The position numbers were made by a program, and so were the translations under genes. Below the pieces are notes generated by a model. That model was not told the origin of the DNA. It worked only from the letters and a program-made list of their open reading frames with translations, and did not search any database. From Candidatus Binatia bacterium (GTDB lineage: Bacteria; Desulfobacterota; Binatia; UBA9968), in the NCBI GenBank assembly GCA_046757725.1, contig JBHHYU010000008.1, positions 230 through 64,229 of the forward strand: DNA of 64,000 nucleotides. Direction: 5' to 3'. This document shows, piece by piece, positions 4,717 to 54,098 of the stretch (positions within the stretch are counted from its first letter, which is position 1; every line of letters begins with the position of its first letter).

Positions 4717-4717
4717 A

Positions 4718-5233
4718 ATGGCTGCCTTATCGGACGGCCTTGTCGGGAGTTTTGCCCATCTTGATAGCCTGCTTACGGCCATCGAAGGATTGCGTCAAGC
4801 CGGTTATCACGAGATACAAGCCCTCTCTCCCGTCCCTCACCATGCCATCGACAAGGCACTGGAGAAACCGACTAGTCCGGTGCGTGTCTTTACGCTGATC
4901 GGTTGTCTTCTTGGCGCCATCACCGGCTTTGTGCTGACCATAGCCACTTCACTCCATTACCCGCTCATCACCGGCGGCAAACCGATTGTCTCGATCCCTC
5001 CCTTCCTCATCATCGTCTTCGAACTCACGATTCTGTTCGGCGGGCTCCTGACTCTCGGGGGCATGCTTTTGAATGCTCGTCTACCACAGGTACAGATCGT
5101 TCCAGCCTATAATCCTCGCTTCTCAGAGGATCGGTTCGGTTTGTGGGTCCGCTGCGAGACCAACAATTATAACGCCGTAACCGAACTGCTCCGAAACGCA
5201 GGTGCGGAGGAGATACGCCATGCCAAGGATTAG
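4718..5233 (+). CDS. actD: ActD-like small membrane subunit of ACIII (DUF3341-like)
   Basis: 171 aa with two central TM helices. There is a perfect AAGGAGG ribosome-binding site 8 nt upstream, and the position after actC matches the ACIII gene order. Confidence 0.6.
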   Translation: MAALSDGLVGSFAHLDSLLTAIEGLRQAGYHEIQALSPVPHHAIDKALEKPTSPVRVFTLIGCLLGAITGFVLTIATSLHYPLITGGKPIVSIPPFLIIVFELTILFGGLLTLGGMLLNARLPQVQIVPAYNPRFSEDRFGLWVRCETNNYNAVTELLRNAGAEEIRHAKD

Positions 5234-5269
5234 CTACATCGTCAAGAACGACGCCAAGGGAAGGCGCTG

Positions 5270-6550: not shown

Positions 6551-7130
6551 AAATTTGCCGTTAAGGCTGCCTACCATGGTAGGGAAAACGATAAGGCAGC
6601 TGCAAAGCTGTTCTCGGCGTCGGAAGCGATTTGCTCTCAGAAGGGCCGGATTGTGCTTGGCTACCTTAGCGGGCCTGTTGTGGCTCGGTGTCAGTATGGC
6701 CTACGGATGGCCCTGGAGCACTGACATGGAGAAACAGCCTTCAGTCAAGCCACAGGAGGCACCCCTAGCGCCACCGCCCAACTCGATTCCAAGGAAAGGC
6801 AGAGAGCCGCGCATGAATCGGATTGAGGCGGGAAAGCGGTTGCGCAATCCCATAGACCCAACGGCCATGTCAGTTGAACACGGCAAGAAGCTTTTTCAGG
6901 TCTACTGCGCCCTTTGTCACGGACCCGATGCGAAGGGCGGGGGCCCTGTGGCCAAAAAATTTGTCCCACCTCCCGACCTGACTTTGGAAATATTCCGCAA
7001 GCGAACCGACGGCTTTATCTACGCAACCATTCGAGACGGAGGACCCCTCATGCCCAGCCAAGCGGAGGCCGTTTCTCCAAAAGAAAGATGGGACATCGTC
7101 AACTACCTCCGCACCTTGCAGGAGAAGTAA
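6510..7130 (+). CDS. actE: Monohaem membrane-anchored cytochrome c (ActE-like)
   Basis: Single CALCHG motif and an N-terminal TM anchor preceded by an Arg-rich stretch. The true start is probably an internal ATG (6543 or 6576), because the 6510 start overlaps actF by 40 bp. Confidence 0.55.
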   Translation: MKQMLLKKSHPMFRNLPLRLPTMVGKTIRQLQSCSRRRKRFALRRAGLCLATLAGLLWLGVSMAYGWPWSTDMEKQPSVKPQEAPLAPPPNSIPRKGREPRMNRIEAGKRLRNPIDPTAMSVEHGKKLFQVYCALCHGPDAKGGGPVAKKFVPPPDLTLEIFRKRTDGFIYATIRDGGPLMPSQAEAVSPKERWDIVNYLRTLQEK

Positions 7131-7425
7131 CGTACGTGAGTGCCTTAGAGAGCTTCTCCCTCCCGTTGCAAATCGAATAGTCTTTCGCAAATTTGGGAAA
7201 AGAGAGATTTTTAATTCTCAACCTCCGGAAGCATCACCCTAATCATCACCAGTTTATCCCAAGTTTTAACGTTCAGGTCAGTGGTATGTTTCTTGCGAAC
7301 CCCTCTTTCTAACTACCCGAGCAAAGGACCTCGCGGCATGGTGACCGAAACGTGTTTGGCGGCTAAATTGGATCGTACCGACAGGCACCGGTATCAGAGT
7401 GCAAACCAATGGTGGAGGCTTCTTC

Positions 7426-8154
7426 ATGCGAACAGTAAGATGGTTATTTATGCTCCTCTCGCTCTTTTTTTGGGGGTGGACGTTTTTCCCGAGCGCTGAG
7501 GCTATTGCCTTTGAACGGGACTCCCGATGGAACAGCTCTTACTCAAAGGGGCGCTCACTGTATCTTATTCAGTGCGCAGCCTGCCATGGCAAAAACGGTG
7601 AGGGCGGCGTCAGTCTCCCTCTTAACTTGCAAAGCTTTCTTGCCGTAGCCCCTCCGGGCTACATCCGTCGTTCGATTTTCTACGGGCGACTACCGCGGCC
7701 AATGGCCGCCTTCGGGACTATTCTCAAAAAGGAAGAGATCGAGTCCATCGCCGCCTATGTACGTTCCTGGCAGCTCCAGGATTACAAGGGCATTGACATG
7801 AATCGTGTGGCCGGTTCCGTATCCAACGGCAAGTTTCTCTTTGATGGAATCTGTTCCGGGTGTCACGGGAGGGACGGTGTCGGCGGCCCCCAAGTGGGTG
7901 GCGGTCACGTCACCAGCTCCATTGCCGGATATACCGGGCCCTCACTTAATAACCAGGGCTTTCTGAAGTCGGCCACGGACGGATATATCAAAGCGACCCT
8001 GATGTATGGCCGCGTTGGTACCCCCATGGGTTCCTACCTGAAGGGCAAGCAAGGTTTTGTCGAGCTGAGCGAGGAAGAGATCAGCGACATCGTGGCATAC
8101 ATTCGCTCCTGGGAAAAGCGAGACGCCGGGCCACGAGATCCCTGGAGAGAATGA
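7426..8154 (+). CDS. Dihaem class-I c-type cytochrome (periplasmic, Sec signal)
   Basis: Two CxxCH motifs (CAACHG, CSGCHG) and an N-terminal signal peptide (MRTVRWLFMLLSLFFWGWTFFPSAEA). A GGTGGAGG ribosome-binding site precedes the ATG at 7426. Confidence 0.7.
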   Translation: MRTVRWLFMLLSLFFWGWTFFPSAEAIAFERDSRWNSSYSKGRSLYLIQCAACHGKNGEGGVSLPLNLQSFLAVAPPGYIRRSIFYGRLPRPMAAFGTILKKEEIESIAAYVRSWQLQDYKGIDMNRVAGSVSNGKFLFDGICSGCHGRDGVGGPQVGGGHVTSSIAGYTGPSLNNQGFLKSATDGYIKATLMYGRVGTPMGSYLKGKQGFVELSEEEISDIVAYIRSWEKRDAGPRDPWRE

Positions 8155-8176
8155 ACAATCTTGAGGAGGAATAAAA

Positions 8177-10819
8177 ATGCTTAAGATAAATCGGCGCAAT
8201 TTTTTGCAGACATCCGCGGCTGCCCTGGCCACGGGCCTGGCCATGGGAGGCAGGCTTTTCAGAGACAGGGAGTTGTTCCAGTTTGTCGGGGATGCAGAAG
8301 GCGCAGCGACGGACACGCGCAAGCTGGTCCCAACCCAGTGTCCTTACTGCGGCGTGGGTTGCCATACTTACTTCGTTGTCGAAAAGGGAAAGATAGTGGC
8401 CTCGGTCCCTGACAAGGACTCCCCGGTAAACCAGGGCATGCAGTGTATCAAGGGACTGACGGCTGCGGAAGCGCTTTATGTAGACCGGCTGGATCAGGTC
8501 CTCATCCGCAAAGACATGTCAAACCCCCTGACCGGCCATGTCTCCAAAACCAAGGGGCGTTTTGATGACAGTGTATTCCGCGTTGGAACATGGGAGGAGG
8601 GGGCGGAGATCGTCTCCGACATGCTTCTCCGAGTGCTGAAAAAGCACGGGGGTAACGCGCTCGGGGTCTACCAGTCCGGCCAGCTCACGATGGAAGAACA
8701 GTGGCTGGACAATATTTTCTACAAGGGCGTGCTCCAGTCAAACACCATCGAAGCCAACGCACGGATGTGCATGACCTCGGCAGTTACCGGATACATCCAC
8801 AGTCTGGGCAGCGACCATCCTCCCGGCAATTATGCAGACATCGAAGAGGCGGATTTCATAAACCACTGGGGTCATAATTCACGTGGCTCGCACCCTGTCC
8901 TTTTCTGGCGGGTGGCCGCATCGAAAGAAAAACGGAATATTCCCACTATGGTGGTAGACCCACGTTACACCGGGACCATGGATGGCTACGCTCAGGTTAA
9001 TCCTAGTAACAGCCTTTCTGTCACCATCCGTCCGAACGGCGACATTTCGCTCCAGAACGCCATTGCCCATGTCTTAATGAAGGAATTCCCTCAGAGCGTG
9101 GACAGTGCCTTTATCCGCAAGCATACGGAAGGCTTTGACAGTTACCGTGCCGGCATTATGGCGCGTTACAGTCCCGAGCAGGTAGTCGACCGAACGGGCA
9201 TCGCTCCGTCGGTAGTGCGGCGGATCGCCGGGATCTGGGCAGACGCCACTATAAAGGGTCGACAGCGTGGCCGAGGTGGTGTGCTGACCTTCTGGGGAAT
9301 CGGCTACAACCAATCGGTTCACGGGCAGCATCGGACCATCAATCTGATCAACCTACACCTCCTGACCGGCAACATCGGCCGGCCCGGATGCGGGCCGTTT
9401 TCGATGACGGGTCAACCCAATGCCATGAGCGAGCGTCTCATGGGGGGGCTCACCGGCCGCCTCCCTTTCAATGAGGGAATTAAGAACGCCAAACACCGTA
9501 AGCTGATCAACCAGATGTGGGGCCTGCCGCCGGGACGCCTCGACGTCACCGCTGCCGCTCCAAACAAAGGCATGGCCATTGGCATGTTCGAGCGCGCATT
9601 CAAGGGCGAGGTCAAGGTTATACAGTTCGCCTACGCCACACACATCGACCTGCCTGAGGTCAACACCCTCGTCCGCCCGGCTATCACCAAAACGTTTACC
9701 TATATGAATGAGGCCTATCGCCATGCGCCGAACCTGCTTTACGCGGACGTGGTCTTCCCCGCCGCCACGCACGGGGAGAAGTGGGGAGTGTACCAGAACA
9801 GCGAGCGCCGGATGTACGTCACCGACAAGGCCATGGAGCCGCCCCGGAACTGCCGACCTGACCTCGACGTCACCATCGACGAGGGAAAGCATATCGCTGC
9901 CAAGCTGGGGCTCGATCCGGACAGGGTCTTCCCTTACAAAAAAAAGGCAAACGGCCGGTACGATCCCGAGGATGTCTTTCGCCACATCTGTAGGGCGAGC
10001 AAGGGCTCAGACGCAGATCTCACGGGGATCCTCGAAGTGGAAAAACGCGACCGCATCTCTCCCTATGAGCAGATGCGGAAGCTCAAGGGCATCTTCTATC
10101 CGGCACCCAGTTACGAATACGCGAAGAAGGGAGGCATCCCCCGCAAGTACATGGATCAAGAGGTTGGGTGGAGAAATAAGCCCTATGGCGCCTTTCGGCG
10201 TAAGAACGGCAAGGCTAAATTCAAGCTCACAGAACAGAACTATTCGCGCGCTAGGGAGATCATTTCCAAGTTGGACAAGGTCGGCAAAGATCCAAACTTC
10301 TTCGTAACCGACCATTACGATGTGCTTGTGGCAATGCGCGATAATGCACTGACGCCGGAGCTCCCCGACTTTGATTTTTACGGCAAGTCGATCACGGAGA
10401 CCAAAAGGGCTGATAAGTATCCCTACTGGCTCAGCCTTGGTGTAGTCTTTGAGCACTTTCATACGACCAAGACCATCCGCGCGGCCACGACCCGGCGACT
10501 TGTCCCTGAACAGTACGTTGAGATCAACCCCCGGGACGCCCGCCAGCTCGGCGTCGAGGATGGCGAATGGGTCCGCATTGTCACGCCTCGGGCGAGTTAT
10601 GAGGCACGAGTCAGTATCGGCACCAAGAGCAAGGTCAAACCGGCCCGCAACAAGGTCATGCCTGGCCAGCTCTTTAGTCCATGGAACCTTTCCGTCGCGG
10701 ATAGCGCGGACCCCAAGAAAAACCGTTGGTTGGTCAACGCAGTCTCGCATCGCGCCTTTGACCCTGTCTCCGGGCAGGCGGATTTCAAACACCTGAGAGC
10801 GCGGATCGAAAAGATCTAG
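8177..10819 (+). CDS. Tat-exported molybdopterin oxidoreductase, NapA-like periplasmic nitrate reductase catalytic subunit candidate (880 aa)
   Basis: Twin-arginine motif (RRNFLQTSAAA). The N-terminal 4Fe-4S motif C-x2-C-x3-C-x27-C is followed by ...PVNQGMQCIKGL, which resembles NapA/Nas (DAPVNRGLNCIKGY). A strong GAGGAGGA ribosome-binding site lies upstream and NapG/NapH-like genes lie downstream. Confidence 0.55.
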   Translation: MLKINRRNFLQTSAAALATGLAMGGRLFRDRELFQFVGDAEGAATDTRKLVPTQCPYCGVGCHTYFVVEKGKIVASVPDKDSPVNQGMQCIKGLTAAEALYVDRLDQVLIRKDMSNPLTGHVSKTKGRFDDSVFRVGTWEEGAEIVSDMLLRVLKKHGGNALGVYQSGQLTMEEQWLDNIFYKGVLQSNTIEANARMCMTSAVTGYIHSLGSDHPPGNYADIEEADFINHWGHNSRGSHPVLFWRVAASKEKRNIPTMVVDPRYTGTMDGYAQVNPSNSLSVTIRPNGDISLQNAIAHVLMKEFPQSVDSAFIRKHTEGFDSYRAGIMARYSPEQVVDRTGIAPSVVRRIAGIWADATIKGRQRGRGGVLTFWGIGYNQSVHGQHRTINLINLHLLTGNIGRPGCGPFSMTGQPNAMSERLMGGLTGRLPFNEGIKNAKHRKLINQMWGLPPGRLDVTAAAPNKGMAIGMFERAFKGEVKVIQFAYATHIDLPEVNTLVRPAITKTFTYMNEAYRHAPNLLYADVVFPAATHGEKWGVYQNSERRMYVTDKAMEPPRNCRPDLDVTIDEGKHIAAKLGLDPDRVFPYKKKANGRYDPEDVFRHICRASKGSDADLTGILEVEKRDRISPYEQMRKLKGIFYPAPSYEYAKKGGIPRKYMDQEVGWRNKPYGAFRRKNGKAKFKLTEQNYSRAREIISKLDKVGKDPNFFVTDHYDVLVAMRDNALTPELPDFDFYGKSITETKRADKYPYWLSLGVVFEHFHTTKTIRAATTRRLVPEQYVEINPRDARQLGVEDGEWVRIVTPRASYEARVSIGTKSKVKPARNKVMPGQLFSPWNLSVADSADPKKNRWLVNAVSHRAFDPVSGQADFKHLRARIEKI

Positions 10820-10840
10820 AGAGCGAGCTGGAGGATAGCT

Positions 10841-11437
10841 GTGAGATTGAAATGGAACCGGCGGCGTTTCCTGCGAGCTGCCGGAGGCGCACTGGGAACG
10901 GCAATACTCTGGGTTCTAGCGGGTGCGCGGGTATCCGCGCGGAGTGGGTCGAACTTCGCCAACCTGCTACGTCCTCCGGGGGCGTTGCCCGAACCTGAGT
11001 TTCTCCAGCGCTGCATCCGCTGCACCCGGTGCGCGGGCGTGTGTCCGAACACCGCCATTCGGATGGCCGGTTTCAGCTCTGGGCTCCACAATCTCAATAC
11101 CCCTTACATCATGCCCCGGGTGCAGGCCTGTATGCTCTGCATGAAATGCACCGAAGTCTGCCCGACGGGCGCGCTGCATCAAATCCCGGCGGATAACAAA
11201 CAGATCACTACCCGTGTCAAGATGGGGCGCGCCTATGTGGATAAGTCCATGTGTTATTCCTATCAAAAACGCACCTGCGGGGTCTGTATTCGCGCCTGTC
11301 CGTTCCCCGGTCTCGCCATGAAGACGGGGCTATACGAGCAGCCCATCGTGACCGACTCCTGTGTCGGATGCGGCCTGTGCGAGCGTGCCTGCATCCACAT
11401 TCCGCAGGCGATTCGAATCGTTCGGGAGGAGGCCTGA
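10841..11437 (+). CDS. NapG-like periplasmic ferredoxin (4x 4Fe-4S, Tat signal)
   Basis: GTG start with a GGAGGA ribosome-binding site. The RRRFLRAAGGALG motif is a Tat signal. Four CxxCxxCxxxCP-type cluster motifs are present. Confidence 0.65.
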   Translation: MRLKWNRRRFLRAAGGALGTAILWVLAGARVSARSGSNFANLLRPPGALPEPEFLQRCIRCTRCAGVCPNTAIRMAGFSSGLHNLNTPYIMPRVQACMLCMKCTEVCPTGALHQIPADNKQITTRVKMGRAYVDKSMCYSYQKRTCGVCIRACPFPGLAMKTGLYEQPIVTDSCVGCGLCERACIHIPQAIRIVREEA

Positions 11438-11441
11438 AGTC

Positions 11442-12968
11442 ATGACTCGATGGCCCCGCCGCATGGTGCAAATCTCGGCACTCGCCTTCCTTATCGCGGT
11501 GCCTGCGCTGAACTACGGCGGTGTCCTCTACCAACAGTACGGAAAAAACGGTTACCACAAGATTGCCCTCATGGGGACACTTTTCGAACGCGGGTTATAC
11601 AATCTCTTCTCAGCGATGGCGCGGGTGCTACCCAATCCGGCGGGAAACTCAACGAGTCTTGTGGGGGGATACGGCTCTTTTTCGATATTCGGTATCTCTT
11701 TCCTCGATCCTGTGATTGCCCTCGAGACGGTGCTTCGCGTGCAGGCAGTCTGGACCGCTATCCTCGTAGGGGCTGCGCTGCCACTGCTGCTGGCCGTGCT
11801 GTTGGGGCGGATCTTCTGCGGATGGCTTTGTCCCGTGAACACGGTGCTCGAAGGTTTCGACCTGCTTCGAAAGCGCGCCCTGCCGCGCATTGGCTTCCGG
11901 CCGCTGGACGTGGCAGTGCCGCGCTGGTTGAAGTGGGTTCTCTTGTTCGCCGGTGTGACCGTAGCCGTCCTGGCGGATCTCACCATCTGGACGCACTTAC
12001 TCCCCCATGTCCAGATCGGCCGGGACGTTTTTTCTCTTATCGTGTTCGGTACGACCACGGTGGGCGCTCCTCTCCTCCTAGGAATCATCCTGGCAGAGAT
12101 TCTCTTTTCCCGCAGGGTATGGTGCCGGTCGCTTTGCCCCACCGGGGCGCTACTCGGCCTGGCGGCCCTGGTAGCTCCACTACGAGTGCGTCGGGCGAAG
12201 GAACCGTGCCTTAAAGGCTGTGCGGCCTGTGCCCAGGCCTGCCCCATGGCACTGAATCCCGCAAAGCCGTTCCCGGTAGCTGAATGCTACAACTGCGGGC
12301 TCTGTGTCGCCACTTGCCCGGCTCAGTTGCTCACTCTCGGCTTCCCGCGGCCGCGCTGGGTCGTTGTTCAAGAGATATTTCCCATGTTTAAGCGCATGAC
12401 GCTTTTTGTCCTCACTGCTACCCTGCTTCTCTCCTCACCGGCGGCGGCCCACCACATGCGCGGCCAGCCACACTACGGGTATGCCGAGAACTATCCACAG
12501 GTCCCTACGAAGGAAACCCGCGCGCACATCGGCAACTTTGATATCACGATCGTCAGTTATTTCTTCGAAGGCCTGCGGCGTGACCTCTCGGACACCCCAC
12601 ACGACGTCCAGTTCTATGTAGGTCTTAGTGACAGCCGGACCCATCAGAGCTACATGGGCCCGCTTTCCATTGAGTTGTGGCGTGGGGGGCAGCGCATCGC
12701 CACCTTCAACCACACGCACCCCTTCGAAGAAGCAGTCTATCGCATTCGTCAGGCAGTTCCCGGACCGGGGACATATGAGATTCGCCTCGCAGGGGGTGGG
12801 ATCAGCGGAGTCGTCACCGTGGATGTGGAGGGAGAATCAGCTCAGTTGACGCCTTTCATCCTGACGGGGGCTGCCGCCCTGCTCGGCCTTCTTATTTTCT
12901 TAAACCGCCGACGGAGGCAGAGAAGGAGAGTCTATGTGGCATCTAATGCGCAAAACCATGTCCAATAG
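11442..12968 (+). CDS. NapH/MauN/CcoG-like polytopic membrane ferredoxin with an in-frame ~200-aa C-terminal extension (His-rich periplasmic domain plus terminal TM anchor)
   Basis: TM helices, a GWLCP motif and two C-terminal 4Fe-4S motifs (CLKGCAACAQACP, CYNCGLCVATCP). The frame then continues without a stop through a hydrophobic segment (MFKRMTLFVLTATLLLSSPAAAHHMRGQPHYGY...), a ~150-aa soluble domain and a final TM helix followed by an RRRRQRRR stretch. The ATG at 11442 has a GGGAGGAGG ribosome-binding site. Confidence 0.55.
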   Translation: MTRWPRRMVQISALAFLIAVPALNYGGVLYQQYGKNGYHKIALMGTLFERGLYNLFSAMARVLPNPAGNSTSLVGGYGSFSIFGISFLDPVIALETVLRVQAVWTAILVGAALPLLLAVLLGRIFCGWLCPVNTVLEGFDLLRKRALPRIGFRPLDVAVPRWLKWVLLFAGVTVAVLADLTIWTHLLPHVQIGRDVFSLIVFGTTTVGAPLLLGIILAEILFSRRVWCRSLCPTGALLGLAALVAPLRVRRAKEPCLKGCAACAQACPMALNPAKPFPVAECYNCGLCVATCPAQLLTLGFPRPRWVVVQEIFPMFKRMTLFVLTATLLLSSPAAAHHMRGQPHYGYAENYPQVPTKETRAHIGNFDITIVSYFFEGLRRDLSDTPHDVQFYVGLSDSRTHQSYMGPLSIELWRGGQRIATFNHTHPFEEAVYRIRQAVPGPGTYEIRLAGGGISGVVTVDVEGESAQLTPFILTGAAALLGLLIFLNRRRRQRRRVYVASNAQNHVQ

Positions 12969-13018
12969 GGTCCGGCGCGTCGTCTTCTCTGATAGGGAAT
13001 CGTCACGGGGGTGAATAG

Positions 13019-13615
13019 ATGACCGAGAAGCCTATCGACCGTAAGACCTTTCTACGTAAGGCCCCGTTGGCAATCGCGCGTGCCTTTGCCCAGGCCGTGC
13101 GCGAGGCGCATCCAACCATCCCAAAATCTTCTCTGCCTCTCCTTCGGCCGCCCGGGGGGGCCGCCAAAGAGACTTTCCTCGACTTGTGCTGCGGGACCGG
13201 TGCGTGCGCAGATGTCTGCCCGGCCAAAGCCATCCAGCTCCGCCCGCGTGAGGATACACCTTCGCTTCGCGCCCCGGTTATCATCCCCAACGAGGCTGCC
13301 TGCGTTGTCTGCGACGAACTCGCTTGCATGTCCGCTTGCCCCAGCGGCGCACTTGTGCCGGTCCCCCGAGAGAAGATCCGCATCGGCTTTGCCCGTGTCA
13401 ACACCGAGACATGCGTGGCATGGACGGGGACGGACCCGGGGTGCAACTATTGCGTTGCCCGTTGTCCACTCGGAACACCGGCCATCTCGATAGATAAGAA
13501 AGCAGACGGAAAAGGGCCGGTCGTTAAGGACGCCTGCATCGGCTGCGGTGTGTGCGAATACTACTGCCCGACCCAACCGCCCGCAATCCGCGTGCTTGCG
13601 AGGGAGCAGGGTTGA
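13019..13615 (+). CDS. Second NapG/NapF-like poly-ferredoxin (4x 4Fe-4S)
   Basis: Four Cys-cluster motifs. The N-terminus (DRKTFLRKAPLAIARAFAQAV) resembles a Tat signal but carries RK instead of RR. A ribosome-binding site lies upstream. Confidence 0.55.
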   Translation: MTEKPIDRKTFLRKAPLAIARAFAQAVREAHPTIPKSSLPLLRPPGGAAKETFLDLCCGTGACADVCPAKAIQLRPREDTPSLRAPVIIPNEAACVVCDELACMSACPSGALVPVPREKIRIGFARVNTETCVAWTGTDPGCNYCVARCPLGTPAISIDKKADGKGPVVKDACIGCGVCEYYCPTQPPAIRVLAREQG

Positions 13616-13738
13616 ACCTTTGTGCTTCCAGGATTTCCGCCTACCGGCCTGTGAAAAAGTTTCCATAAGCGGCCATTTTTTTCTTGACAAAGGGTTAGCG
13701 ATGCTTTAAACAGACTCATAAGAGTTAAACGACCTATT

Positions 13739-13749
13739 AGGTCTTTTGA
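13739..13749. promoter_or_regulatory. Exact 11-mer AGGTCTTTTGA, copy 1 (overlaps the Rrf2 RBS region, -17..-7 from ATG)
   Basis: An identical 11-mer recurs at 14258-14268 in the next intergenic region. A CTATTAG/CTAATAG half-site lies just 5' of each copy. Confidence 0.4.
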
Positions 13750-13755
13750 CTCCTA

Positions 13756-14229
13756 ATGAGTGAAATGAAGTTAGGGCGGGAAAGTTCATACGGAATCGAA
13801 GGCCTGTTGACTCTGGCTGCAAGGCCGCGGGGCACTGCGATGCTCTTAAGCGACATTGCCGCCGATAGAGGGATCCCCCAGAGTTTTCTCGCTAAAATCT
13901 TTCAGAAACTCACCAGATACGGAATCGTCCATTCTTTCCGTGGGGTCGTCCGCGGTTACGCCCTCGCTCGGCACCCAAAAGAGATCAAGGTTAAAGAGAT
14001 CCTATTGGCGATCGAAGGGCCTGATCTTTTCGAGCGTTGTATCTTCTGGAGCGATCGCTGTGCCGATCGCAACCCCTGTCCTCTGCATGACCAGTGGAAG
14101 CAATTAAAACATCAGTTCATCGGAGGATTGATGGAACGGACAACCCTGGCCGACCTGATAAAAAAAAGACCAGCCAGGCCTACGACGGCCAAGCGTCACT
14201 TTGTTCAGGACGCAAGGCGGGGAAGTTAA
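13756..14229 (+). CDS. Rrf2-family transcriptional regulator (NsrR/IscR-like, putative Fe-S cluster ligands)
   Basis: The N-terminal wHTH is typical of Rrf2. The motif CIFWSDRCADRNPCP gives C-x6-C-x5-C spacing as in NsrR/IscR. The gene sits between the Nap-like and NXR-like modules. Confidence 0.7.
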   Translation: MSEMKLGRESSYGIEGLLTLAARPRGTAMLLSDIAADRGIPQSFLAKIFQKLTRYGIVHSFRGVVRGYALARHPKEIKVKEILLAIEGPDLFERCIFWSDRCADRNPCPLHDQWKQLKHQFIGGLMERTTLADLIKKRPARPTTAKRHFVQDARRGS

Positions 14230-14257
14230 AAATTTTTGTGTCTCTAATAGACTAAAA

Positions 14258-14268
14258 AGGTCTTTTGA
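14258..14268. promoter_or_regulatory. Exact 11-mer AGGTCTTTTGA, copy 2 (128 bp upstream of the nxrC-like start)
   Basis: This is an exact repeat of 13739-13749. Chance recurrence of an 11-mer within ~300 bp of intergenic DNA is improbable. Confidence 0.4.
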
Positions 14269-14395
14269 ATCATTTGGTACACCCTAAGGAGTGCGGAAAC
14301 GGCATGATTTAATTTCCACGCGCTCATCAGGGACTCAACGAAAATAGAAGTAGGAGACATGAGGCGTTGAGCTAGTCATAGGGAGGAGGTCAGAA

Positions 14396-15976
14396 ATGAG
14401 ACGGTGTTTTTTGTTGATTGCCGGTGTGTTCCTCCTGTTACGTGCAGCAGGAGTCGGGACCTCCGCCGAATTAAAATCTCCTCCCCCTTCACCTAAACTC
14501 CTTGCCCTCGGAAAGCAGACTTACAACAAACATTGTGTCGCGTGCCATGGAGTGAATGGACGAGGAAATGGAGAAGCGGCCTACCTTCTCTATCCCAAAC
14601 CCCGTAATTTTGTGGCCGCAAGGTACCGCCTAGTGTCGACCTGGGAACGCATCCCGACCGACCAGGATCTCTTCAACACGATTTCGCGCGGCATGCCGGG
14701 ATCAGCCATGCCCTCGTGGGGGCATCTCTCGTCAAAGCAGCGCTGGGGGCTTGTTCATTACGTAAAGTCATTTGCTGAAAGGCCACTAACCACCAAGCCT
14801 CAGAGGAGACCAGGGGCTGATGGCAGCGATGGTCAAGGGGTCATCTATGTTGGGCCGGAGCCCTCTTACGATGCCACTGCCAAGGCGCGTGCTAAAGAGC
14901 TTTTCCGAGAGGCGTGTGCCTCCTGTCACGGTGCAACGGCAAAAGGGGATGGCGTGAAAAAGCAGTGGGACGTGGAAGGCTTTCCCACGCGCCCACGTGA
15001 TCTCACAGCCGGCGTTTTCAAGGGAAGTCCGGACCCCTTGCAACTGTACCGCCGCATCATCGCAGGCATTCCGGGTAGCCCCATGCCGATGAACAGCTGG
15101 GCTTATGGTAATGACGCCTGGCACCTCGTTCACTTTATCCGCTCCCTCTCAAGTGATGAGCAACGAGAGCGCGTGGAGATGAAAAAATTTCAGATCGTGG
15201 CCACGCGCGTAAAGAAGGTACCGGACAATCCCGACTCCGGCACTTGGCGTCTCGCCCAACCGGTAAACCTTCATCTGATGCCGCTCTGGTGGCGCTCCCA
15301 GCGGCCGGAAGAATTGACCGTGCGGGCACTCTACGACAGGAAGGAATTGGCTTTACTTTTAGTCTGGGCCGATCAGACGCATGACCATACAGCGATCCGG
15401 CCACAGGATTTCCGGGATGCTGCAGCGGTAGAGTTCTCGCTTACCAGGGATCCTCCTTTTTTCGCCATGGGCGAGAAGGGGAAATCCGTCAATATCTGGA
15501 TGTGGAAATCGGAGCGGCAGGCAGACCTTGAACCTGCCTTTCAGGACCTTGACAAGATCTACCCTAACCTCGGCATCGACTCTTACCCTAATCTATTACG
15601 CTCGCCGGTGGAACAGCCTTCGCGTAACGCGCTCACGCTCAAGTCAGACAAGACCTTCGTGACCGGATGGGGGGCGGGGAATATTGTTTCTGACCCCCAG
15701 CGCAAGAGCCCAGCCGAGGATCTCACGGCGCAGGGATTCGGCACGCTGCGAGCACGACCGCGGATCGACCAGAAGGTCAATGCGAAGGGCATTTATGGTG
15801 TCGGTGCCTACCGGGTCATCTTCCGGCGGGCGTTAAAGCCCAGCGGTAAGCACGCGCCGAAGTTTCAACCCGGCACGGCTGTGCCGGTGGCCTTTGCGGT
15901 CTGGAACGGCAGCGCCGGAGACCGTGACGGAAAAAAATCTGTGACCATCTGGCAGGAGCTGAAGATCGCAAAATGA
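14396..15976 (+). CDS. NxrC-like gamma subunit: Sec-signal, N-terminal dihaem cytochrome c fused to a C-terminal EB_dh-like (type-II DMSO-reductase haem-b subunit) domain
   Basis: Strong GGGAGGAGG ribosome-binding site and a signal peptide. Two cbb3/c552-type haem motifs (CVACHG, CASCHG) are followed by ...WNHLVHFIRSL. The C-terminal ~260 aa ends in VAFAVWNGSAGDRDGKKSVTIWQEL, which recalls from memory the gamma subunits of EbdC/SerC/NxrC enzymes. The gene lies immediately upstream of the alpha subunit. Confidence 0.55.
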   Translation: MRRCFLLIAGVFLLLRAAGVGTSAELKSPPPSPKLLALGKQTYNKHCVACHGVNGRGNGEAAYLLYPKPRNFVAARYRLVSTWERIPTDQDLFNTISRGMPGSAMPSWGHLSSKQRWGLVHYVKSFAERPLTTKPQRRPGADGSDGQGVIYVGPEPSYDATAKARAKELFREACASCHGATAKGDGVKKQWDVEGFPTRPRDLTAGVFKGSPDPLQLYRRIIAGIPGSPMPMNSWAYGNDAWHLVHFIRSLSSDEQRERVEMKKFQIVATRVKKVPDNPDSGTWRLAQPVNLHLMPLWWRSQRPEELTVRALYDRKELALLLVWADQTHDHTAIRPQDFRDAAAVEFSLTRDPPFFAMGEKGKSVNIWMWKSERQADLEPAFQDLDKIYPNLGIDSYPNLLRSPVEQPSRNALTLKSDKTFVTGWGAGNIVSDPQRKSPAEDLTAQGFGTLRARPRIDQKVNAKGIYGVGAYRVIFRRALKPSGKHAPKFQPGTAVPVAFAVWNGSAGDRDGKKSVTIWQELKIAK

Positions 15977-16058
15977 AGAGCGCAGCAGAAATAGAATTCA
16001 CAAAGCGGAATGGGGCAGGGGGTCTTGATGCTGACCAGTGGATTCCAGAAGGAGAGTG

Positions 16059-19000
16059 ATGACCATGAACGATGAAAAACTACAAGATCGGAATCGCTTG
16101 ACGCGCCGGGATTTCCTGCGCTGGATGGGTATCGGGAGCGGCACAGCAGTACTCAGCACAGGGTTGCCGTTGAGGCTTCTGGCTGCTGCGCGCCCCGGCG
16201 AGAATCCCCTCGCTGGTTCGGTGGACCGTAACTGGGAAAAAATATATCGCAATCAGTACAAGTATGATCGTGTTTTCGACTGGGTCTGCTCCCCCAATGA
16301 CACTCATGCCTGTCGAGTACGGGCCTATGTCCGAAATGAGATCGTGACGAGACTCGGATCAACCTACGACTACCAGACTTACGCCGACCTTTACGGTAAC
16401 AAAGCCACCCCGAACTGGAACCCACGGCAGTGCGCCAAGGGCTATACTTTCCATCGGGTGATCTACGGACCCTACCGGCTCAGGCATCCCATCGTCCGCA
16501 AAGGCTGGAAGGCCTGGGCCGACGCCGGCTTCCCTGAGCTGAGACCGGAAAACAAAGCGAAGTACATGTTCGACAACCGCGGCCAGGACGAGTTTGTTCA
16601 GATCTCCTGGGAGGATGCGCTTCAAAGCATCGCCAAGGCCATCGTCGCCATTTCGACACGTTACAGCGGTGAGGGGGGAAAGAGGCGGTTGCTGGCCCAG
16701 GGCTACCAGCCGGAAATGGTTGAGGCTGCCGCGGGTGCCGGCACTCGTTGCGTCAAGATGCGTGGAGGCATGGGCCTTCTAGGGGTCATCGGCAAATACG
16801 GGTTGTACCGGCTCAACAATTCGCTTGCGCTCCTCGATGCGAAGATTCGAGGGGTAGGTCCAGAAAAAGCACTAGCTGGCCGCAACTGGTCTAATTATAC
16901 CTGGCACGGAGATCAGGCGCCCGGCCACCCATGGGTGCACGGACTGCAAACATCGGACTGCGATTTCAACGACTTGCGCTTCACCAAGCTCATTATCTTG
17001 GACGGAAAGAATCTCGTAGAAAATAAGCTACCCGATGCCCACTGGTTCATCGAGTGCATGGAGCGTGGGGGAAAAATTGTCGTTATCGCCCCGGAATACG
17101 GACCTCCTGCAACCAAGGCTGATTACTGGATTCCCATTAGGCCCGAGACCGACACGGCACTCTGGCTTGGTGTTACTAAACTGATTTTCGAAAACAAGTG
17201 GTACGATGAGACATTCGTCAAACGCCATACCGATTTCCCCCTCCTCGTCCGTACCGATACGTTGAGGCGTCTGCGGGCACATGAGATCTTCCCGAACTAT
17301 TCCTCCAACCTCTCCCCTGATGGGCCTTCGATGAAGATCCAAGGTCTTACACGGGAGCAACACTCCAAACTCGGTGATTTTGTAATCTGGGACCAGAAAA
17401 ACAATGGCCCAGCCGCGCTCACGCGAGATGATGTGGGAGAGACGATGGCTAAAAAGAGGCTGGACCCAACCCTGGAAGGAACGTTCAAGGTCAAGCTTGT
17501 CGACGGTAAAGAGGTGGAGGTCGCCACGCTTTGGACGCTCTATCGGACCCATCTTCGGGACTATGACCTTGACACGGTATCAGAGATCACGCATGCACCC
17601 AAGAACCTGATCGAACAGCTTGCCAAGGACATCGGAGCGATAAAACCAGTTGCGATCCACCAGGGCGAGGGGATCAATCACTGGTTCCACGGTACCGAGA
17701 TGAACCGTGCAGCCTACCTGCCACTGATGCTAACCGGCAACATTGGCAGGCCGGGAGCCGGGGGCCATACATGGGCAGGAAATTACAAAGCAGGTCTTTT
17801 TCAGGGTTCCCCATGGACCGGGCCGGGCTTTAAGGGGTGGGTAGCCGAGGACCCATTCCACCCGAATTTGGACCCCAAGGCCCATGGAAAAAACGTAAAG
17901 ATCCATGGCTACACTAAGGGCGAGGAGCCAGCCTACTGGAACCATGGGGACCGGGCATTGATTCTCAACACACCGAAGTTCGGCCGTAAGAATTTTACCG
18001 GCGAGACCCACATGCCAACACCGACCAAAGCCATTATCTTTAACAACGTTAACCTGATCAATAATGCCAAGTGGGCCTACGGGATGATTAAGAACGTCAA
18101 CCCCAACATCGAGATGATCGTCTCGCTGGATATTCAGATGACTGCCTCTATTGAGTATGCAGACATTGCGCTGCCAGCGAATAGCTGGATGGAGTTTGAA
18201 GGGTTGGAGATGACGGCGAGCTGCTCAAATCCCTTCTTGCAGATCTGGAAGGGAGGTATTTCACCGGTGTTTGATAGCAGGGATGACCTGACGATTCTGG
18301 CTGGCATCGCCGGCGAGCTTGCCGAGATTACGGGAGAGAGCCGCTTTCGGGATCATTTTAAGTTCGCTGCGCCCGAACAGCGCGGGATCTATATCCAGCG
18401 CCTGCTCGACACCTGCACGACCACGGCAGGGTATAAACTCAAGGACATTATGGCCGGCAAGTATGGACCCCCGGGGGGCAGCCTGTTGAACTTCCGCACC
18501 TACCCTCGCATCCCCTTCTATGAGCAGATCCATGATTCAGAGCCGTTCCACACGGACACGGGGAGACTCCACGCCTATGCTGATATCCCTGAGGCAATCG
18601 AGTACGGGGAAAACTTCATCGTGCATCGGGAGGGACCAGAGGCTACGCCCTACTTGCCCAACGTCATTGTCAGTTCAAACCCTCACATTCGCCCGGAGGA
18701 TTACGGGATCCCTCTAACCGCGGAACACTGGGATGAACGCACCGTCCGCAACGTCAAGCTTCCATGGAGCAGAGTCAAAGAGACGAAAAATTTCCTGTGG
18801 GAGAAAGGCTTCCATTTCTACTGCCTCACTCCGAAGACACGCCACCGGGTCCACAGTGGTTGGTCAAACGTCGATTGGCACATGCTCTATGACTCAAACT
18901 TCGGCGACCCTTACCGTCTTGATAAGCGTGCGCCAACGGTGGGAGAGCACCAGCTCCATATCAATCCTCAGGCAGCACGGAAATTAGGGATCAACGATGG

Positions 19001-19538
19001 CGATTACGTTTACGTGGATGCCAACCCGGCCGACCGCCCCTACCTCGGCGCAACGCCCAGCGATCCTTTCTACAAGGTATCGCGCTGCATGCTGCGAGTG
19101 AAATACAACCATGCTTATCCCTATAACATCGTCATGATGAAGCACGCCCCGTTCATCGCCACAGAAAAGAGCGTCAAGGCACACGAAACACGCCCCGACG
19201 GCCGCGCCCTATCGGAAAATACCGGCTACCAGGCCAATCTCCGCTACGGCTCCCAGCAATCCGTCACCCGTAATTGGCACATGCCAATGCACCAAACGGA
19301 CAACCTTTTTCACAAGTCAAAGGTCTTTATGGGGTTTATCTTTGGCGGTGAAGCCGACAACCACGCGATCAACACCGTACCGAAGGAAACCCTGGTGCGC
19401 GTCACGAAGGCTGAGGACGGAGGCCTTGGCGCCAAAGGCATCTGGAAACCGGCCACCACCGGCTACACGCCGGACAACGAGAACGACTTCATGAAACGAT
19501 ATCTGGCAGGGGAGCTGGTCAAGGTGCCGGGCAAATAG
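16059..19538 (+). CDS. nxrA: Tat-exported NarG-type molybdopterin oxidoreductase alpha subunit, periplasmic NXR/NarG-like (NxrA candidate, ~1160 aa)
   Basis: Twin-arginine motif TRRDFLRWMGIGSG. The N-terminal Cys/His FS0-type motif is VCSPNDTHACRV. The size matches periplasmic NxrA (~1150 aa) rather than type-II enzymes (~920-980 aa) or cytoplasmic NarG (~1250 aa). A gamma-like subunit lies upstream and a beta subunit downstream. The alternative ATG at 16065 has better ribosome-binding-site spacing. Confidence 0.7.
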   Translation: MTMNDEKLQDRNRLTRRDFLRWMGIGSGTAVLSTGLPLRLLAAARPGENPLAGSVDRNWEKIYRNQYKYDRVFDWVCSPNDTHACRVRAYVRNEIVTRLGSTYDYQTYADLYGNKATPNWNPRQCAKGYTFHRVIYGPYRLRHPIVRKGWKAWADAGFPELRPENKAKYMFDNRGQDEFVQISWEDALQSIAKAIVAISTRYSGEGGKRRLLAQGYQPEMVEAAAGAGTRCVKMRGGMGLLGVIGKYGLYRLNNSLALLDAKIRGVGPEKALAGRNWSNYTWHGDQAPGHPWVHGLQTSDCDFNDLRFTKLIILDGKNLVENKLPDAHWFIECMERGGKIVVIAPEYGPPATKADYWIPIRPETDTALWLGVTKLIFENKWYDETFVKRHTDFPLLVRTDTLRRLRAHEIFPNYSSNLSPDGPSMKIQGLTREQHSKLGDFVIWDQKNNGPAALTRDDVGETMAKKRLDPTLEGTFKVKLVDGKEVEVATLWTLYRTHLRDYDLDTVSEITHAPKNLIEQLAKDIGAIKPVAIHQGEGINHWFHGTEMNRAAYLPLMLTGNIGRPGAGGHTWAGNYKAGLFQGSPWTGPGFKGWVAEDPFHPNLDPKAHGKNVKIHGYTKGEEPAYWNHGDRALILNTPKFGRKNFTGETHMPTPTKAIIFNNVNLINNAKWAYGMIKNVNPNIEMIVSLDIQMTASIEYADIALPANSWMEFEGLEMTASCSNPFLQIWKGGISPVFDSRDDLTILAGIAGELAEITGESRFRDHFKFAAPEQRGIYIQRLLDTCTTTAGYKLKDIMAGKYGPPGGSLLNFRTYPRIPFYEQIHDSEPFHTDTGRLHAYADIPEAIEYGENFIVHREGPEATPYLPNVIVSSNPHIRPEDYGIPLTAEHWDERTVRNVKLPWSRVKETKNFLWEKGFHFYCLTPKTRHRVHSGWSNVDWHMLYDSNFGDPYRLDKRAPTVGEHQLHINPQAARKLGINDGDYVYVDANPADRPYLGATPSDPFYKVSRCMLRVKYNHAYPYNIVMMKHAPFIATEKSVKAHETRPDGRALSENTGYQANLRYGSQQSVTRNWHMPMHQTDNLFHKSKVFMGFIFGGEADNHAINTVPKETLVRVTKAEDGGLGAKGIWKPATTGYTPDNENDFMKRYLAGELVKVPGK

Positions 19539-19572
19539 AGGGAGCTTGCAAGATAGACCGAGGAGAACTCAG

Positions 19573-19869
19573 ATGCCTTATGACGATCCTGATCCCACGG
19601 ATCCCAATATCTTGGTGGGGGTAGCCCTGCCGGCCGATGCGGAAGTAATATGCGAGATGGCCTACGTCTTTGCCGAAGAATTTATCCGAATGGGGTACGA
19701 TCGAGAGCGAGTGCTGCAGGTTTTCAAGAACCCGTTTTACACCGGTCCGCACAATGCTTACCGGGACCTGGGCGAAGAGAAAGTCCAGTCCATTATCGAG
19801 GAGTGTATCCACGCATGGGGCGGTGTCTGTTTTGTTGATTGCGACGACGGAAAGGAGACAGAACCATGA
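19573..19869 (+). CDS. Small acidic Cys-containing protein of unknown function, translationally coupled to nxrB
   Basis: 98 aa with a GAGGAG ribosome-binding site upstream. Its stop overlaps the nxrB start (ATGA). Cys residues include a C-terminal CFVDCDD. It occupies the entire nxrA-nxrB intergenic space. Confidence 0.5.
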   Translation: MPYDDPDPTDPNILVGVALPADAEVICEMAYVFAEEFIRMGYDRERVLQVFKNPFYTGPHNAYRDLGEEKVQSIIEECIHAWGGVCFVDCDDGKETEP

Positions 19870-21131
19870 GTCAGGTTTACAACTGGCAACTCGGCCGCAA
19901 GATGGATTATCCCTTTCCGGCCGCATATCCGAAGCGGCAGTTCGCCTTTGTCTTTAATATCAACCGCTGCATCGCCTGCCAGACCTGTACCATGGCCTGC
20001 AAATCAACCTGGACCTTCAGCAAGGGCCAGGAACATATGTGGTGGGCCAACGTCGAGACCAAACCTTATGGTGGTTATCCCCAGTTTTGGGACATGAAGA
20101 TCCTGCGGCTTCTCGAGGAAGCCAACCCCGGAGGGCAGCAATGGTCGGGAACCCCTTCCGGGAACTCCAAAAACCCCTACGGTCGTTTTGACGGACAAAC
20201 TATTTTTGAGGCTAAGAAAGCGCTTCAGCCCGGGAGCTCACGGGTCCTAGGTTACCTTCCCACCGACGAGGAGTGGAACTTTCCCAACATCTATGAGGAC
20301 AATCCGCTCGGCAAGAAAGGGGTGCCCAACCAATTCGACACAACCGGAGTGGAGCTGCCCGTACACAAGACCTGGTTCTTTTATCTGGCGCGTATTTGCA
20401 ACCACTGTACCTACCCCGGGTGTCTGGCAGCCTGCCCGCGCAAGGCCATTTACAAACGCCCTGAGGACGGCATCGTCCTCATCGACCAGAAGGAGTGCCG
20501 TGGCTACCGTAAGTGCGTGGAGGCCTGCCCTTACAAAAAGGCAATGTATCGGGGCAATACCCGAGTGACCGAGAAATGCATTGCCTGCTACCCACGAGTC
20601 GAGGGTAAAGACCCCGAGAGTGGTGGCCAGCCTATGGAAACGCGTTGCATGGCGGCGTGCGTGGGCCAGATGCGCATGCAGGGCCTAGTCAAAATGAACC
20701 GGGACGGCACCTGGACCGAAGACCGACACAATCCGATCTACTACCTCGTGCATGTGGCCAAAGTAGCCCTACCGCTTTATCCCGAACTCGGCACTTTACC
20801 CAATGGTTACTATATTCCTCCCCGCTGGGTACCGCGACCTTATCTTCGGCAGATGTTCGGTCCAGGCGTTGACAACGCGATCGAGCGTTATATTAACCCG
20901 GACCGAGAACTCCTTGCGGTCCTGCAGCTTTACCGGCGCTCCAACCGAATCATCTTCCGCTATGAAATTAAGAAGGGGCCAAAGATCTATGAGGCCACGC
21001 ACCGCGGCCGGAAAGTGACGCTGTACAACGACACCATTATCGCTTATGGCCGAAACAACAAGGAGATCTTCCGAACCACTGTTGAGGAGCCGGTTTATGT
21101 ACGGTCGAAAAAACATGCCAACTCGATATGA
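19866..21131 (+). CDS. nxrB: NarH/NxrB-type Fe-S beta subunit (4 clusters, NxrB-like insertion), 421 aa
   Basis: The N-terminus MSQVYNWQLGRKMDYPF...FAFVFNINRCIACQTCTMACKSTW resembles periplasmic NxrB. Four Cys clusters are present, including the inserted CIACYPRVEGKDPESGGQPMETRCMAAC. A GGAAAGGAGA ribosome-binding site lies upstream. Confidence 0.75.
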   Translation: MSQVYNWQLGRKMDYPFPAAYPKRQFAFVFNINRCIACQTCTMACKSTWTFSKGQEHMWWANVETKPYGGYPQFWDMKILRLLEEANPGGQQWSGTPSGNSKNPYGRFDGQTIFEAKKALQPGSSRVLGYLPTDEEWNFPNIYEDNPLGKKGVPNQFDTTGVELPVHKTWFFYLARICNHCTYPGCLAACPRKAIYKRPEDGIVLIDQKECRGYRKCVEACPYKKAMYRGNTRVTEKCIACYPRVEGKDPESGGQPMETRCMAACVGQMRMQGLVKMNRDGTWTEDRHNPIYYLVHVAKVALPLYPELGTLPNGYYIPPRWVPRPYLRQMFGPGVDNAIERYINPDRELLAVLQLYRRSNRIIFRYEIKKGPKIYEATHRGRKVTLYNDTIIAYGRNNKEIFRTTVEEPVYVRSKKHANSI

Positions 21132-21217
21132 AGAGATAAAGAGCCCGTATTCCGTTCGTTTTCATTTCCTCCTGCGCAACGTCCGGCGCCTTCAGGTCAC
21201 CCACAGTTCAGGAGATC

Positions 21218-22024
21218 GTGATGAAACCTGAAAATCTGAGAAAAGAACAAGAGGTCAGGGAGGGCGATCTAGCCCTCTGCCGAGCCACTCTGTATAGCGC
21301 GCTGGCGCTCGGCTTCCGACCGCCCACAGAGGAAACATTAACTCGCCTCGCCTCTACGGAGGGTGCAACGGTTTTGGCCGGCGCAGCGGCGCTGCTGGAC
21401 GGACAGCACCAGGTAACCCTCACCTCCGCCGCAGAGGATCTCAGCAAAATAAAAAAAACCTCCGTATCAGAGCTCGAAGTCTCATTCTGGCGCCTATTCG
21501 GCCATACCGTACGCGGCCAGGTACCCCTATATGAAACCGAGTACGGTGTTGATTCTCTTTTCCAGCAACCGCAGGAATTGGCAGACCTATTAGGTTTTTA
21601 CCACGCATTCGGTCTCGCCTTAGACCCGAAAGAACACGAACGGGCAGATCATGTTAGTTGCGAACTCGAGTTTCTCTCCTTTCTTGCCCTCAAAGAGGTC
21701 TACGGCTTGGAGCAACGGGACGACCCTATGCTGGAAGAGACACGTAAGGCCGCGCGCACCTTCTTACGGGATCATCTCGGTCGGTTCGCGCCTGCCTTCA
21801 CCAGGAAGCTTTCTCGTGAAGACCGGGAGGGCTTTTACGGGGCTCTAGGTGAGCTCTGCGCGAGGTTTGTGATCGAAGATTGTACCCGACTCAGCGTGTC
21901 GGTCGGCCCAGAGAGTTTAGGCTTGCGTCCAGCTGCTGAAGATCAAGTGCCGATGGCATGTGACAATGGAGCGGAGTGCACTGAGTTGTCCGGCGCTTGC
22001 GAACAGGAAATAATGGAAAAATGA
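21218..22024 (+). CDS. TorD/NarJ/DmsD-family redox enzyme maturation chaperone (delta subunit)
   Basis: Contains the family motif E-H-E-R-A-D-H-V-S-C-E-L-E-F-L-S-F-L (DHxxxELEFLxxL), typical of TorD/NarJ. The gene lies downstream of the beta subunit. Confidence 0.7.
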   Translation: MMKPENLRKEQEVREGDLALCRATLYSALALGFRPPTEETLTRLASTEGATVLAGAAALLDGQHQVTLTSAAEDLSKIKKTSVSELEVSFWRLFGHTVRGQVPLYETEYGVDSLFQQPQELADLLGFYHAFGLALDPKEHERADHVSCELEFLSFLALKEVYGLEQRDDPMLEETRKAARTFLRDHLGRFAPAFTRKLSREDREGFYGALGELCARFVIEDCTRLSVSVGPESLGLRPAAEDQVPMACDNGAECTELSGACEQEIMEK

Positions 22025-54028: not shown

Positions 54029-54098
54029 GGGACCGCGCTAATGATAGCACGCAGACGAACTGCAAGAAAGGCTTTTCGCTTACAGCCTGCCTAGAATG

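Follow-up and report, generated by a model that had tools for sequence, protein, structure and literature searches.

An Rrf2-family regulator gene flanked by two copies of a family-specific 31-bp palindrome beside an NXR-like operon of a Candidatus Binatia bacterium

Autoregulated Rrf2-family repressors that carry an iron-sulfur (Fe-S) cluster and act at palindromic operators are a conventional and well-known type of regulator. One of them, NsrR, reportedly represses nirK in Nitrosomonas europaea. Another, RsrR of Streptomyces venezuelae, senses redox state by a [2Fe-2S] cluster whose ligands are Cys90, Cys110, Glu8 and His12. In the ScNsrR-hmpA1 complex the central 7 bp are without base contacts, and the wings of IscR contact DNA on a 29-bp fragment (PMC9338935). 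The fourth cluster ligand of ScNsrR is Asp8 of the partner subunit (PMC5411485). Little is known about the regulation of nitrite-oxidoreductase-type (NXR-type) enzymes, especially in uncultured lineages of groundwater and soil and in nitrite-dependent methane oxidisers. Here we describe an Rrf2-family regulator gene that lies between Nap-like and NXR-like genes on contig JBHHYU010000008.1 of a Candidatus Binatia bacterium, in a stretch of 64,000 nucleotides that we call the window. The gene is flanked by two copies of a 31-bp palindromic element, the putative operators 1 and 2. In our preferred reading, to which we assign a probability of about 0.78, the protein would be an autoregulated repressor that also controls the adjacent nxr-like operon.

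We compared 166 loci encoding relatives of the regulator, taken from genome and metagenome collections, and built a position matrix from 70 distinct sites, leaving contigs identical to the window out of the training and calling a site at 14 bits or more. The element consists of two 12-bp arms around 7 bp (12-7-12), with the consensus GAGTCAAAAGAC-N7-GTCTTTTGACTC; G10, A11, T21 and C22 vary little or not at all, and the 7 bp in the centre are A/T-rich and variable. In nearly all orthologues it stands 37-49 nt ahead of the start codon (-37 to -49). A site was found in 92 of the 93 loci whose Rrf2 protein is at least 60% identical to that of the window, in 21 of 30 loci at 50-59% identity and in 1 of 40 below 50%, and none of 2000 background stretches of 145 nt contained a match. 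Across 1.1 Mb of related loci the matrix gave 139 matches of at least 14 bits, with 114 of them no more than 80 nt upstream of the Rrf2 start, 22 no more than 250 nt past its stop and 3 at 143 nt upstream. It is evident that the motif is specific to this Rrf2 gene family. An earlier note on this DNA, made from the sequence alone, had named absence of its motif from orthologous loci as an outcome that would speak against it. The comparison gave the opposite outcome, since the motif lies upstream of nearly every orthologue and, in addition, loci of an independent set have a second copy just past the stop codon.

When both strands of the 64 kb were scanned with the matrix, the two sites around the Rrf2 gene were the only strong ones: the next best, unrelated position scored only 8.5 bits and shifted overlaps of the two sites reached at most 13.4. 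A half-site scan of the window gave extra matches that were weak and lay within coding regions (14550, 30430 and 36559). The exact 11-mer AGGTCTTTTGA that the earlier note had reported in both intergenic regions is indeed present on the plus strand at 13739-13749 and 14258-14268, and there is no third copy in the window even with one mismatch allowed. Both copies are conserved half-sites, namely the right arms of two copies of the one family-specific element. Thus the 11-mers do belong to an operator-like pair flanking the Rrf2 gene, as the note had it, with one site placed for autoregulation and the other ahead of the nxrC-like gene, but the unit is the 31-bp palindrome and not an 11-mer preceded by a heptamer. 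The two heptamers exist, CTATTAG at 13734-13740 and CTAATAG at 14244-14250, but in different registers: the former forms the spacer in the middle of site 1 and shares 2 nt with the 11-mer, and the latter lies within the left arm of site 2, 7 nt ahead of the 11-mer. The 12-7-12 layout with its variable A/T-rich centre fits the solved Rrf2-DNA complexes, because the central 7 bp are uncontacted there and the footprint is about 29 bp or more.

Operator 1 (putative; GAGTTAAACGAC-CTATTAG-GTCTTTTGACTC, 13722-13752) is a 31-bp palindrome whose right arm contains the first 11-mer. It lies within an inverted repeat of up to 18-1-18 that is centred at 13737 and 83% complementary. Of the 24 positions of the family consensus it matches 22, and the matrix trained without the window gives it 34.4/34.7 bits. 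It begins 9 nt past a -10-like hexamer (TAAACA, 13707-13712, plus strand), which in turn follows by 17 nt an exact -35 hexamer (TTGACA, 13684-13689, plus strand) with a T-run in front. We infer from these boxes a putative sigma-70-type Rrf2 promoter, TTGACA-17-TAAACA, which is recovered only by comparison of loci: the exact TTGACA occurs at the same relative position in 20 of 20 sigma-70-class orthologous loci examined, and TAnnnn at exactly 17 nt in 17 of the 20 when aligned. The 17-nt spacer (13690-13706) contains a (C/G)GATG block at a fixed position, as it does in L081, L083, L084, L100, L161 and L165 of our locus set; this block may be one more regulatory element, or else an extended -10 of an unusual kind. 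Operator 1 ends 13 nt ahead of the likely start codon ATG 13765, and no Shine-Dalgarno sequence is recognisable ahead of this ATG in the window or in the orthologues. The proposal of the earlier note that the 11-mer overlaps the ribosome-binding site of the regulator is not supported.

The comparison also separated two promoter classes around the same element. In a sigma-54-like class of 64 distinct loci, GGYAY-N5-YTGC ends 0-12 nt ahead of the site. A -24/-12 element of the sigma-54 type, TGGTAT-N5-TTGC, is seen for example in L004 (5935-5956), L059 and L077, among L002-L166. In this class the identifiable downstream gene is usually NxrC-like or NxrA-like and lies 30-70 nt past the Rrf2 stop, and the Rrf2 gene would be the first gene of the nxr-like operon, usually with one operator. 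In a sigma-70-like class of 22 loci including the window, TTGAC[AG] ends 23-33 nt ahead of the site, and the order is TTGACA, 17 nt, TAnnnn and then the site 0-12 nt later. The promoter type appears to have been swapped around a constant operator, the lineage of the window and Methylomirabilota using the TTGACA promoter. In both classes the site spans the expected transcription start, which is the classic placement of a repressor operator, and for this reason we read the protein as a probable repressor. GAFTGA and Walker A motifs of enhancer-binding proteins were not found in the flanks of the loci except in L107 and L121, both of the sigma-70 class, and no gene for such a protein turned up within 3-6 kb of the sigma-54-type elements. 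In three loci (L006, L045 and L120, with regulators 68-69% identical) there is no site at the usual -44, and a strong copy of 23-29 bits is located 143 nt upstream.

Operator 2 (putative; TCTCTAATAGAC-TAAAAAG-GTCTTTTGAATC, 14241-14271) has a degenerate left arm and a right arm that contains the second 11-mer. It scores 24.6 bits, the second best in the whole window, and shares 20 of 31 letters with site 1 when the two are placed in register (alignable over 27-31 nt). It begins 12 nt past the Rrf2 stop and ends 124 nt ahead of the nxrC-like ATG. Directly ahead of it are the stop codon and an A/T run (TAAAAATTTTTGTG, 14227-14240, plus strand), the run following the stop being AAAAATTTTT. The offset of 12 nt matches that of Methylomirabilota-type loci and L014 (regulators 58-62% identical), in which a second site of 20-33 bits lies 10-13 nt past the stop, and in all other two-site loci (L014 628-642, L017 3560-3572 and more) a stop codon, a run of T7-8 and, 2-3 nt further on, the second site likewise follow one another. 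Second sites are found where 167-466 nt (77 nt in L014) separate the Rrf2 gene from the next one, and most short-gap loci have a single site. Further downstream, the earlier note had proposed a hairpin in the 5' untranslated region (UTR) of the nxrC-like gene (CTCAACG...CGTTGAG, 14334-14371, plus strand), with a 7-bp stem and a 24-nt loop. Its letters are present, GACTCAACG at 14332 and CGTTGAG at 14365, but its stability is no better than chance (z = -0.78, with 44 of 200 shuffles folding as well; z = 0.05 for the whole UTR) and there is no match in Rfam, and we do not count it as a feature.

The regulator gene itself (13765-14229, plus strand) encodes 154 residues. An in-frame ATG at 13756 would give 157 residues, and ATG 13765 is the likely start: all relatives begin with MKLGRES, a 100%-identical database protein has 154 residues, and an exact look-up of the 157-residue form returned no database entry. 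The earlier note had called the protein an Rrf2-family regulator with a C-x6-C-x5-C cluster pattern, and both statements agree with our results. The protein matches Pfam PF02082 with E = 9e-28 (97.5 bits against a cut-off of 30) and TIGR00738 (rrf2_super) with 104.2 bits against 73.3, the only family model whose cut-off was passed, and it has C92-x6-C99-x5-C105 in the numbering of the 154-residue form. In an alignment of 23 family members these three Cys residues, which in the loop ahead of the dimerisation helix mark the cluster-binding Rrf2 subgroup of the IscR, NsrR and RirA type, are invariant, and so is H108. In the AlphaFold model (predicted local distance difference test 81, predicted TM-score 0.74), helices and a two-strand wing follow one another in the order expected of Rrf2, with a winged helix-turn-helix domain at the N-terminus and a long dimerisation helix behind it, and all 38 best matches of the model in a fold search of the PDB are Rrf2 proteins; the TM-scores of RsrR, CymR, IscR and NsrR are similar, so the fold search does not discriminate among them. 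Taken together, the regulator looks like a dimeric winged-helix Rrf2 protein that very probably carries an Fe-S cluster. Its subfamily is compact, since of 15,698 Rrf2-like clusters (from 1.84 billion representatives) no more than 17, counted at 50% identity, have E <= 1e-30, and the nearest named relative of the regulator, at 78% identity, comes from a metagenome-assembled genome (MAG) of Binatia.

With regard to the named subfamilies, the protein did not reach the cut-off of any model: it scored 73.2 bits against 207.55 for TIGR02010 and 53.2 against 275 for NF008110, both of IscR, 43.8 against 182 for the NsrR equivalog model NF008240, 43.4 against 193 for RirA and 56.5 against 195 for CymR. 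The residues C92, C99, C105 and H108 align column for column with 92, 98, 104 and His107 of E. coli IscR (the aligned Cys positions are Ala in the crystallised IscR variant), giving the Cys3-His1 ligand set of IscR with one inserted residue. Position 8 is occupied by Ser in the window protein and by Ala in the consensus of the family, and the N-termini align without offset (query 3-133 versus 3-132 of the 5N07 chain). The label "NsrR-like" of the earlier note is thus not supported, in view of the failed NsrR cut-off, the Ser or Ala at residue 8 and the alignment of H108 with IscR His107, and the ligand set appears IscR-like.

We propose that a dimer of the regulator binds the two 31-bp operators in their 12-7-12 layout. 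Operator 1 would occlude the transcription start of the regulator's own promoter, and because it covers the expected start, the regulator would shut off its own synthesis. Through operator 2, the same protein would control the nxrC-like/nxrA/nxrB operon, most likely by repression, in which it would block a promoter nearby or else transcription that reads through from the Rrf2 promoter. A change of the cluster would release the DNA and turn both units on; NO (nitric oxide), oxygen or redox state and Fe-S supply are candidate signals. In the sigma-54-class relatives one operator would serve both roles, the regulator being the first gene of the operon. Under this proposal the Rrf2 gene with its sites is very probably a local switch for the NXR-like enzyme.

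Several results weigh against this proposal. The -10-like box of the regulator's promoter is weak, and a strict promoter scan returned no sigma-70 site. Near operator 2 no convincing promoter was found, either by eye for -35/-10 and -24/-12 elements or by the strict scan (TGGTAC at 14275-14280 was considered as a -24 element and rejected, as it is without GC at -12). For this reason the control of nxr might take the form of repression, a roadblock, looping with site 1 over 519 bp or, conceivably, activation. In operator 2, only 6 of the 12 positions of the left arm agree with the right arm read as its reverse complement. Exactly this site 2 occurs elsewhere only in near-identical copies of the window (L085 and L086), and hence its conservation rests on more distant loci; identical contigs are also present in the Logan runs SRR29324601-611. 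Moreover, in the closest relatives (L081 and L083; 76-79% identical) the gene is followed by another molybdoenzyme, and there is no second site.

The simplest alternative is that the 11-mer duplication is a functionless chance repeat in two A/T-rich intergenic regions. The 11-mer pair taken alone is weak evidence: an 11-mer or longer is common to both intergenic regions in 50 of 3000 dinucleotide-preserving shuffles (~1.7%), the window has 28 other exact direct pairs of 11-mers 100-1000 nt apart, and at least two matches, one mismatch allowed, arise in 38 of 100 window shuffles. The pair becomes significant because a matrix trained on other organisms only recognises the family-wide motif in both copies, with scores of 34.4 and 24.6 bits. 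The sites are the two best positions of the window by a 16-bit margin and the motif is confined to the flanks of the Rrf2 gene in the 1.1 Mb of related DNA, and in our view the matrix scans and the comparison of loci have already refuted a chance origin, to which we give next to no weight. The palindromes might instead act as RNA, as a hairpin in the 5' UTR that governs how the Rrf2 mRNA is translated or how stable it is, or as terminators, site 1 for the upstream Nap-like operon and site 2 for the Rrf2 gene. Site 1 would form an RNA stem with 12 of 13 pairs, it would lie within the 5' UTR if the proposed transcription start is correct, a terminator scan flags GACCTATTAGGTC followed by TTTTGA, and a T-run precedes site 2. 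However, the arms are conserved as sequence rather than as base pairs: pairs 1-31, 4-28 and 12-20 are non-complementary in 37, 29 and 33 of the 70 sites, C31 is kept in 67 of 70, and the right arm stays fixed where the left arm drifts. The strict terminator scan gave a weak 5-bp stem inside site 1 only, the full stem is not followed by a U-run, site 2 would fold poorly as a hairpin, and there is neither a terminator hairpin ahead of its T-run nor a consistent hairpin in six loci. No Rfam family matched, and a role as RNA would leave the strict co-occurrence with an Rrf2 DNA-binding protein unexplained; we consider it quite improbable.

Another possibility is that the sites are real operators but are read by a different factor, for example a global anaerobic or nitrogen-oxide regulator, with the Rrf2 gene only as a target. 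Binding by the Rrf2 protein itself is suggested by comparison, other regulators were sought in the flanks by simple motif searches only, and the conserved CGATG block in the promoter spacer hints at further factors. On the other hand, the strength of the motif declines with Rrf2 identity (92/93, 21/30 and 1/40), as expected of a binder that co-evolves with its site, the site is found in four phyla or more and with two types of promoter without ever being detached from the Rrf2 gene, and the 12-7-12 geometry is typical of Rrf2. A different reader of the sites is therefore improbable too, by a hair less so than an RNA function. It may also be asked whether operator 2 serves the nxr-like operon at all, or is only an auxiliary site for Rrf2 repression, for example by looping over the 519 bp, with operator 1 being autoregulatory. 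The missing promoter beside site 2 would suit this, wherever a locus has two sites, these enclose the Rrf2 gene and nothing else, and auxiliary downstream operators are known for other repressors, lacO2 being an example. Nevertheless, in the 64 sigma-54-class loci the single operator would necessarily control nxr as well, with Rrf2 as the first gene of the operon. The second site is found mainly at loci whose downstream genes are a unit of their own, and that of L014 ends 21 nt ahead of the ATG of the next gene. We regard a purely auxiliary operator 2 as unlikely, though it is the least unlikely of these alternatives, and we prefer an autoregulated Rrf2 repressor that would also control the nxr-like operon.

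The presumed target operon begins with the gene for an NxrC-like gamma subunit (14396-15976, plus strand), which has two cytochrome c domains and an EB_dh haem-b domain (Pfam Cytochrom_C and EB_dh) and stays below the cut-off of TIGR03477 for the gamma subunit of type II dimethyl sulfoxide (DMSO) reductase. The rest of the operon (16038-22977, plus strand) encodes, by Pfam and NCBIfam, subunits of the type II DMSO reductase family: an alpha subunit (16038-19538), a beta subunit (19839-21131) and a NarJ-like chaperone (21218-22024), followed by an uncharacterised open reading frame of 326 residues (21997-22977) without a Pfam or NCBIfam match, all on the plus strand. In Methylomirabilota-type loci, homologues of this last frame (~34% identical) are placed ahead of nxrA and behind the Rrf2 gene (L014 695-1606; L017 3835-4857). 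The frame thus encodes an uncharacterised protein that is conserved in association with NXR, at a place in the operon that differs from lineage to lineage. In the related loci the Rrf2 gene stands directly upstream of NxrC-like/NxrA/NxrB genes, or of a gene like that at 21997 followed by NxrA and NxrB, in MAGs of Deltaproteobacteria, Binatia and Methylomirabilota; a NxrC-like gene 65-78% identical to that of the window is right behind the Rrf2 gene in many of them. The closest named relatives, from a Binatia MAG, have downstream a 709-residue molybdopterin oxidoreductase with an Fe-S subunit (L081 3550-5679; L083 1404-2711) and not NXR-like genes, and the subfamily is thus tied to more than one type of molybdoenzyme. 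In Gemmatimonadota loci (L038, L040, L042 and others), distant homologues of the regulator (42-47% identical) precede a distant NarG/NarH-like enzyme, and a relative of the motif, GGAC-N7-GTCC followed by TTTAACTC, occurs about 40 nt upstream of the Rrf2 start. The link between regulator and oxidoreductase may be older than the subfamily defined here.

Upstream of the regulator, a respiratory block occupies 466-13615 and shares its strand with the NXR-like operon. Among its members are genes of alternative complex III (ActB-like at 466-3387, NrfD/ActC-like and ActD), three cytochrome c genes, and a NapA-like molybdoenzyme with a twin-arginine translocation (TAT) signal together with NapG/NapH-like ferredoxins (8177-13615). 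No Rrf2 motif is present ahead of any gene of this block. Elsewhere, at 51133-56465 on the minus strand, a xanthine-dehydrogenase-family molybdoenzyme of 788 residues is encoded with two XdhC-like maturation genes, one of them with a YHS domain, and this group is apparently unrelated.

In full-text searches of the literature we came upon no paper that connects NXR-type operons with an Rrf2 regulator, and PMC3578206 contains nothing on nxr promoters. The Rrf2 subfamily, the 31-bp motif, the link with NXR-like enzymes and the use of one operator at sigma-54-like and sigma-70-like promoters appear to be undescribed. A wider idea, which we put forward tentatively and hold at somewhat less than even odds, is that the subfamily is a dedicated switch of periplasmic oxidoreductases of the NXR and NAR (nitrate reductase) type in uncultured Methylomirabilota, Binatia, 'Deltaproteobacteria' and relatives. 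Its IscR-like Cys3-His cluster would couple the expression of these Fe-S- and haem-rich enzymes to NO, nitrite or oxygen, and the protein would act as a repressor at both sigma-54 and sigma-70 promoters. The module offers a testable handle on the timing of enzyme expression, the 31-bp motif can be used for regulon prediction in MAGs, and the protein is a candidate for a new Fe-S sensor that belongs to the nitrogen cycle and has an IscR-like set of ligands.

Finally, the regulator can be placed beside the described members of its family. RsrR gave the top structural matches to the model (PDB 6HSD and 6Y42; E = 1e-8) and is a cluster-based redox sensor, as the window protein may be, with a long operator like the one proposed here, a 39-bp fragment being present in the complex; however, its sequence identity is only 25% and its ligand set is unlike C92/C99/C105/H108. 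NsrR (PDB 5N07 and 7B0C), which senses NO by a [4Fe-4S] cluster, is similar to the proposed system as an autoregulated Rrf2 repressor with three Cys residues that acts on genes of nitrogen-oxide metabolism, and its operator also has two arms around an uncontacted central 7 bp. On the other hand, it is the weakest sequence match in the PDB (E = 9e-4) and its model cut-off was missed widely; its site is 23 bp long and that of the window is 31 bp with another sequence, and the window protein has Ser or Ala in place of the ligand Asp8 and, as in IscR, an invariant His past the third Cys. IscR (PDB 4HF0-4HF2 and 4CHU) differs in its equivalog cut-off, which was not reached, in the x5 spacing between the first two Cys residues, which is x6 in the window protein, and in its isc/suf neighbourhood, since both the window and the related loci have respiratory genes of Nap-like and NXR-like type as neighbours. 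The operator GAGTCAAAAGAC-N7-GTCTTTTGACTC is presumably neither the type 1 nor the type 2 motif of IscR. Nonetheless, IscR has the same fold and the best-scoring named family model (73 bits), it contacts DNA over about 29 bp, and its three Cys residues and His align with those of the window regulator, for which we likewise propose autoregulation by a palindromic operator near its own promoter.

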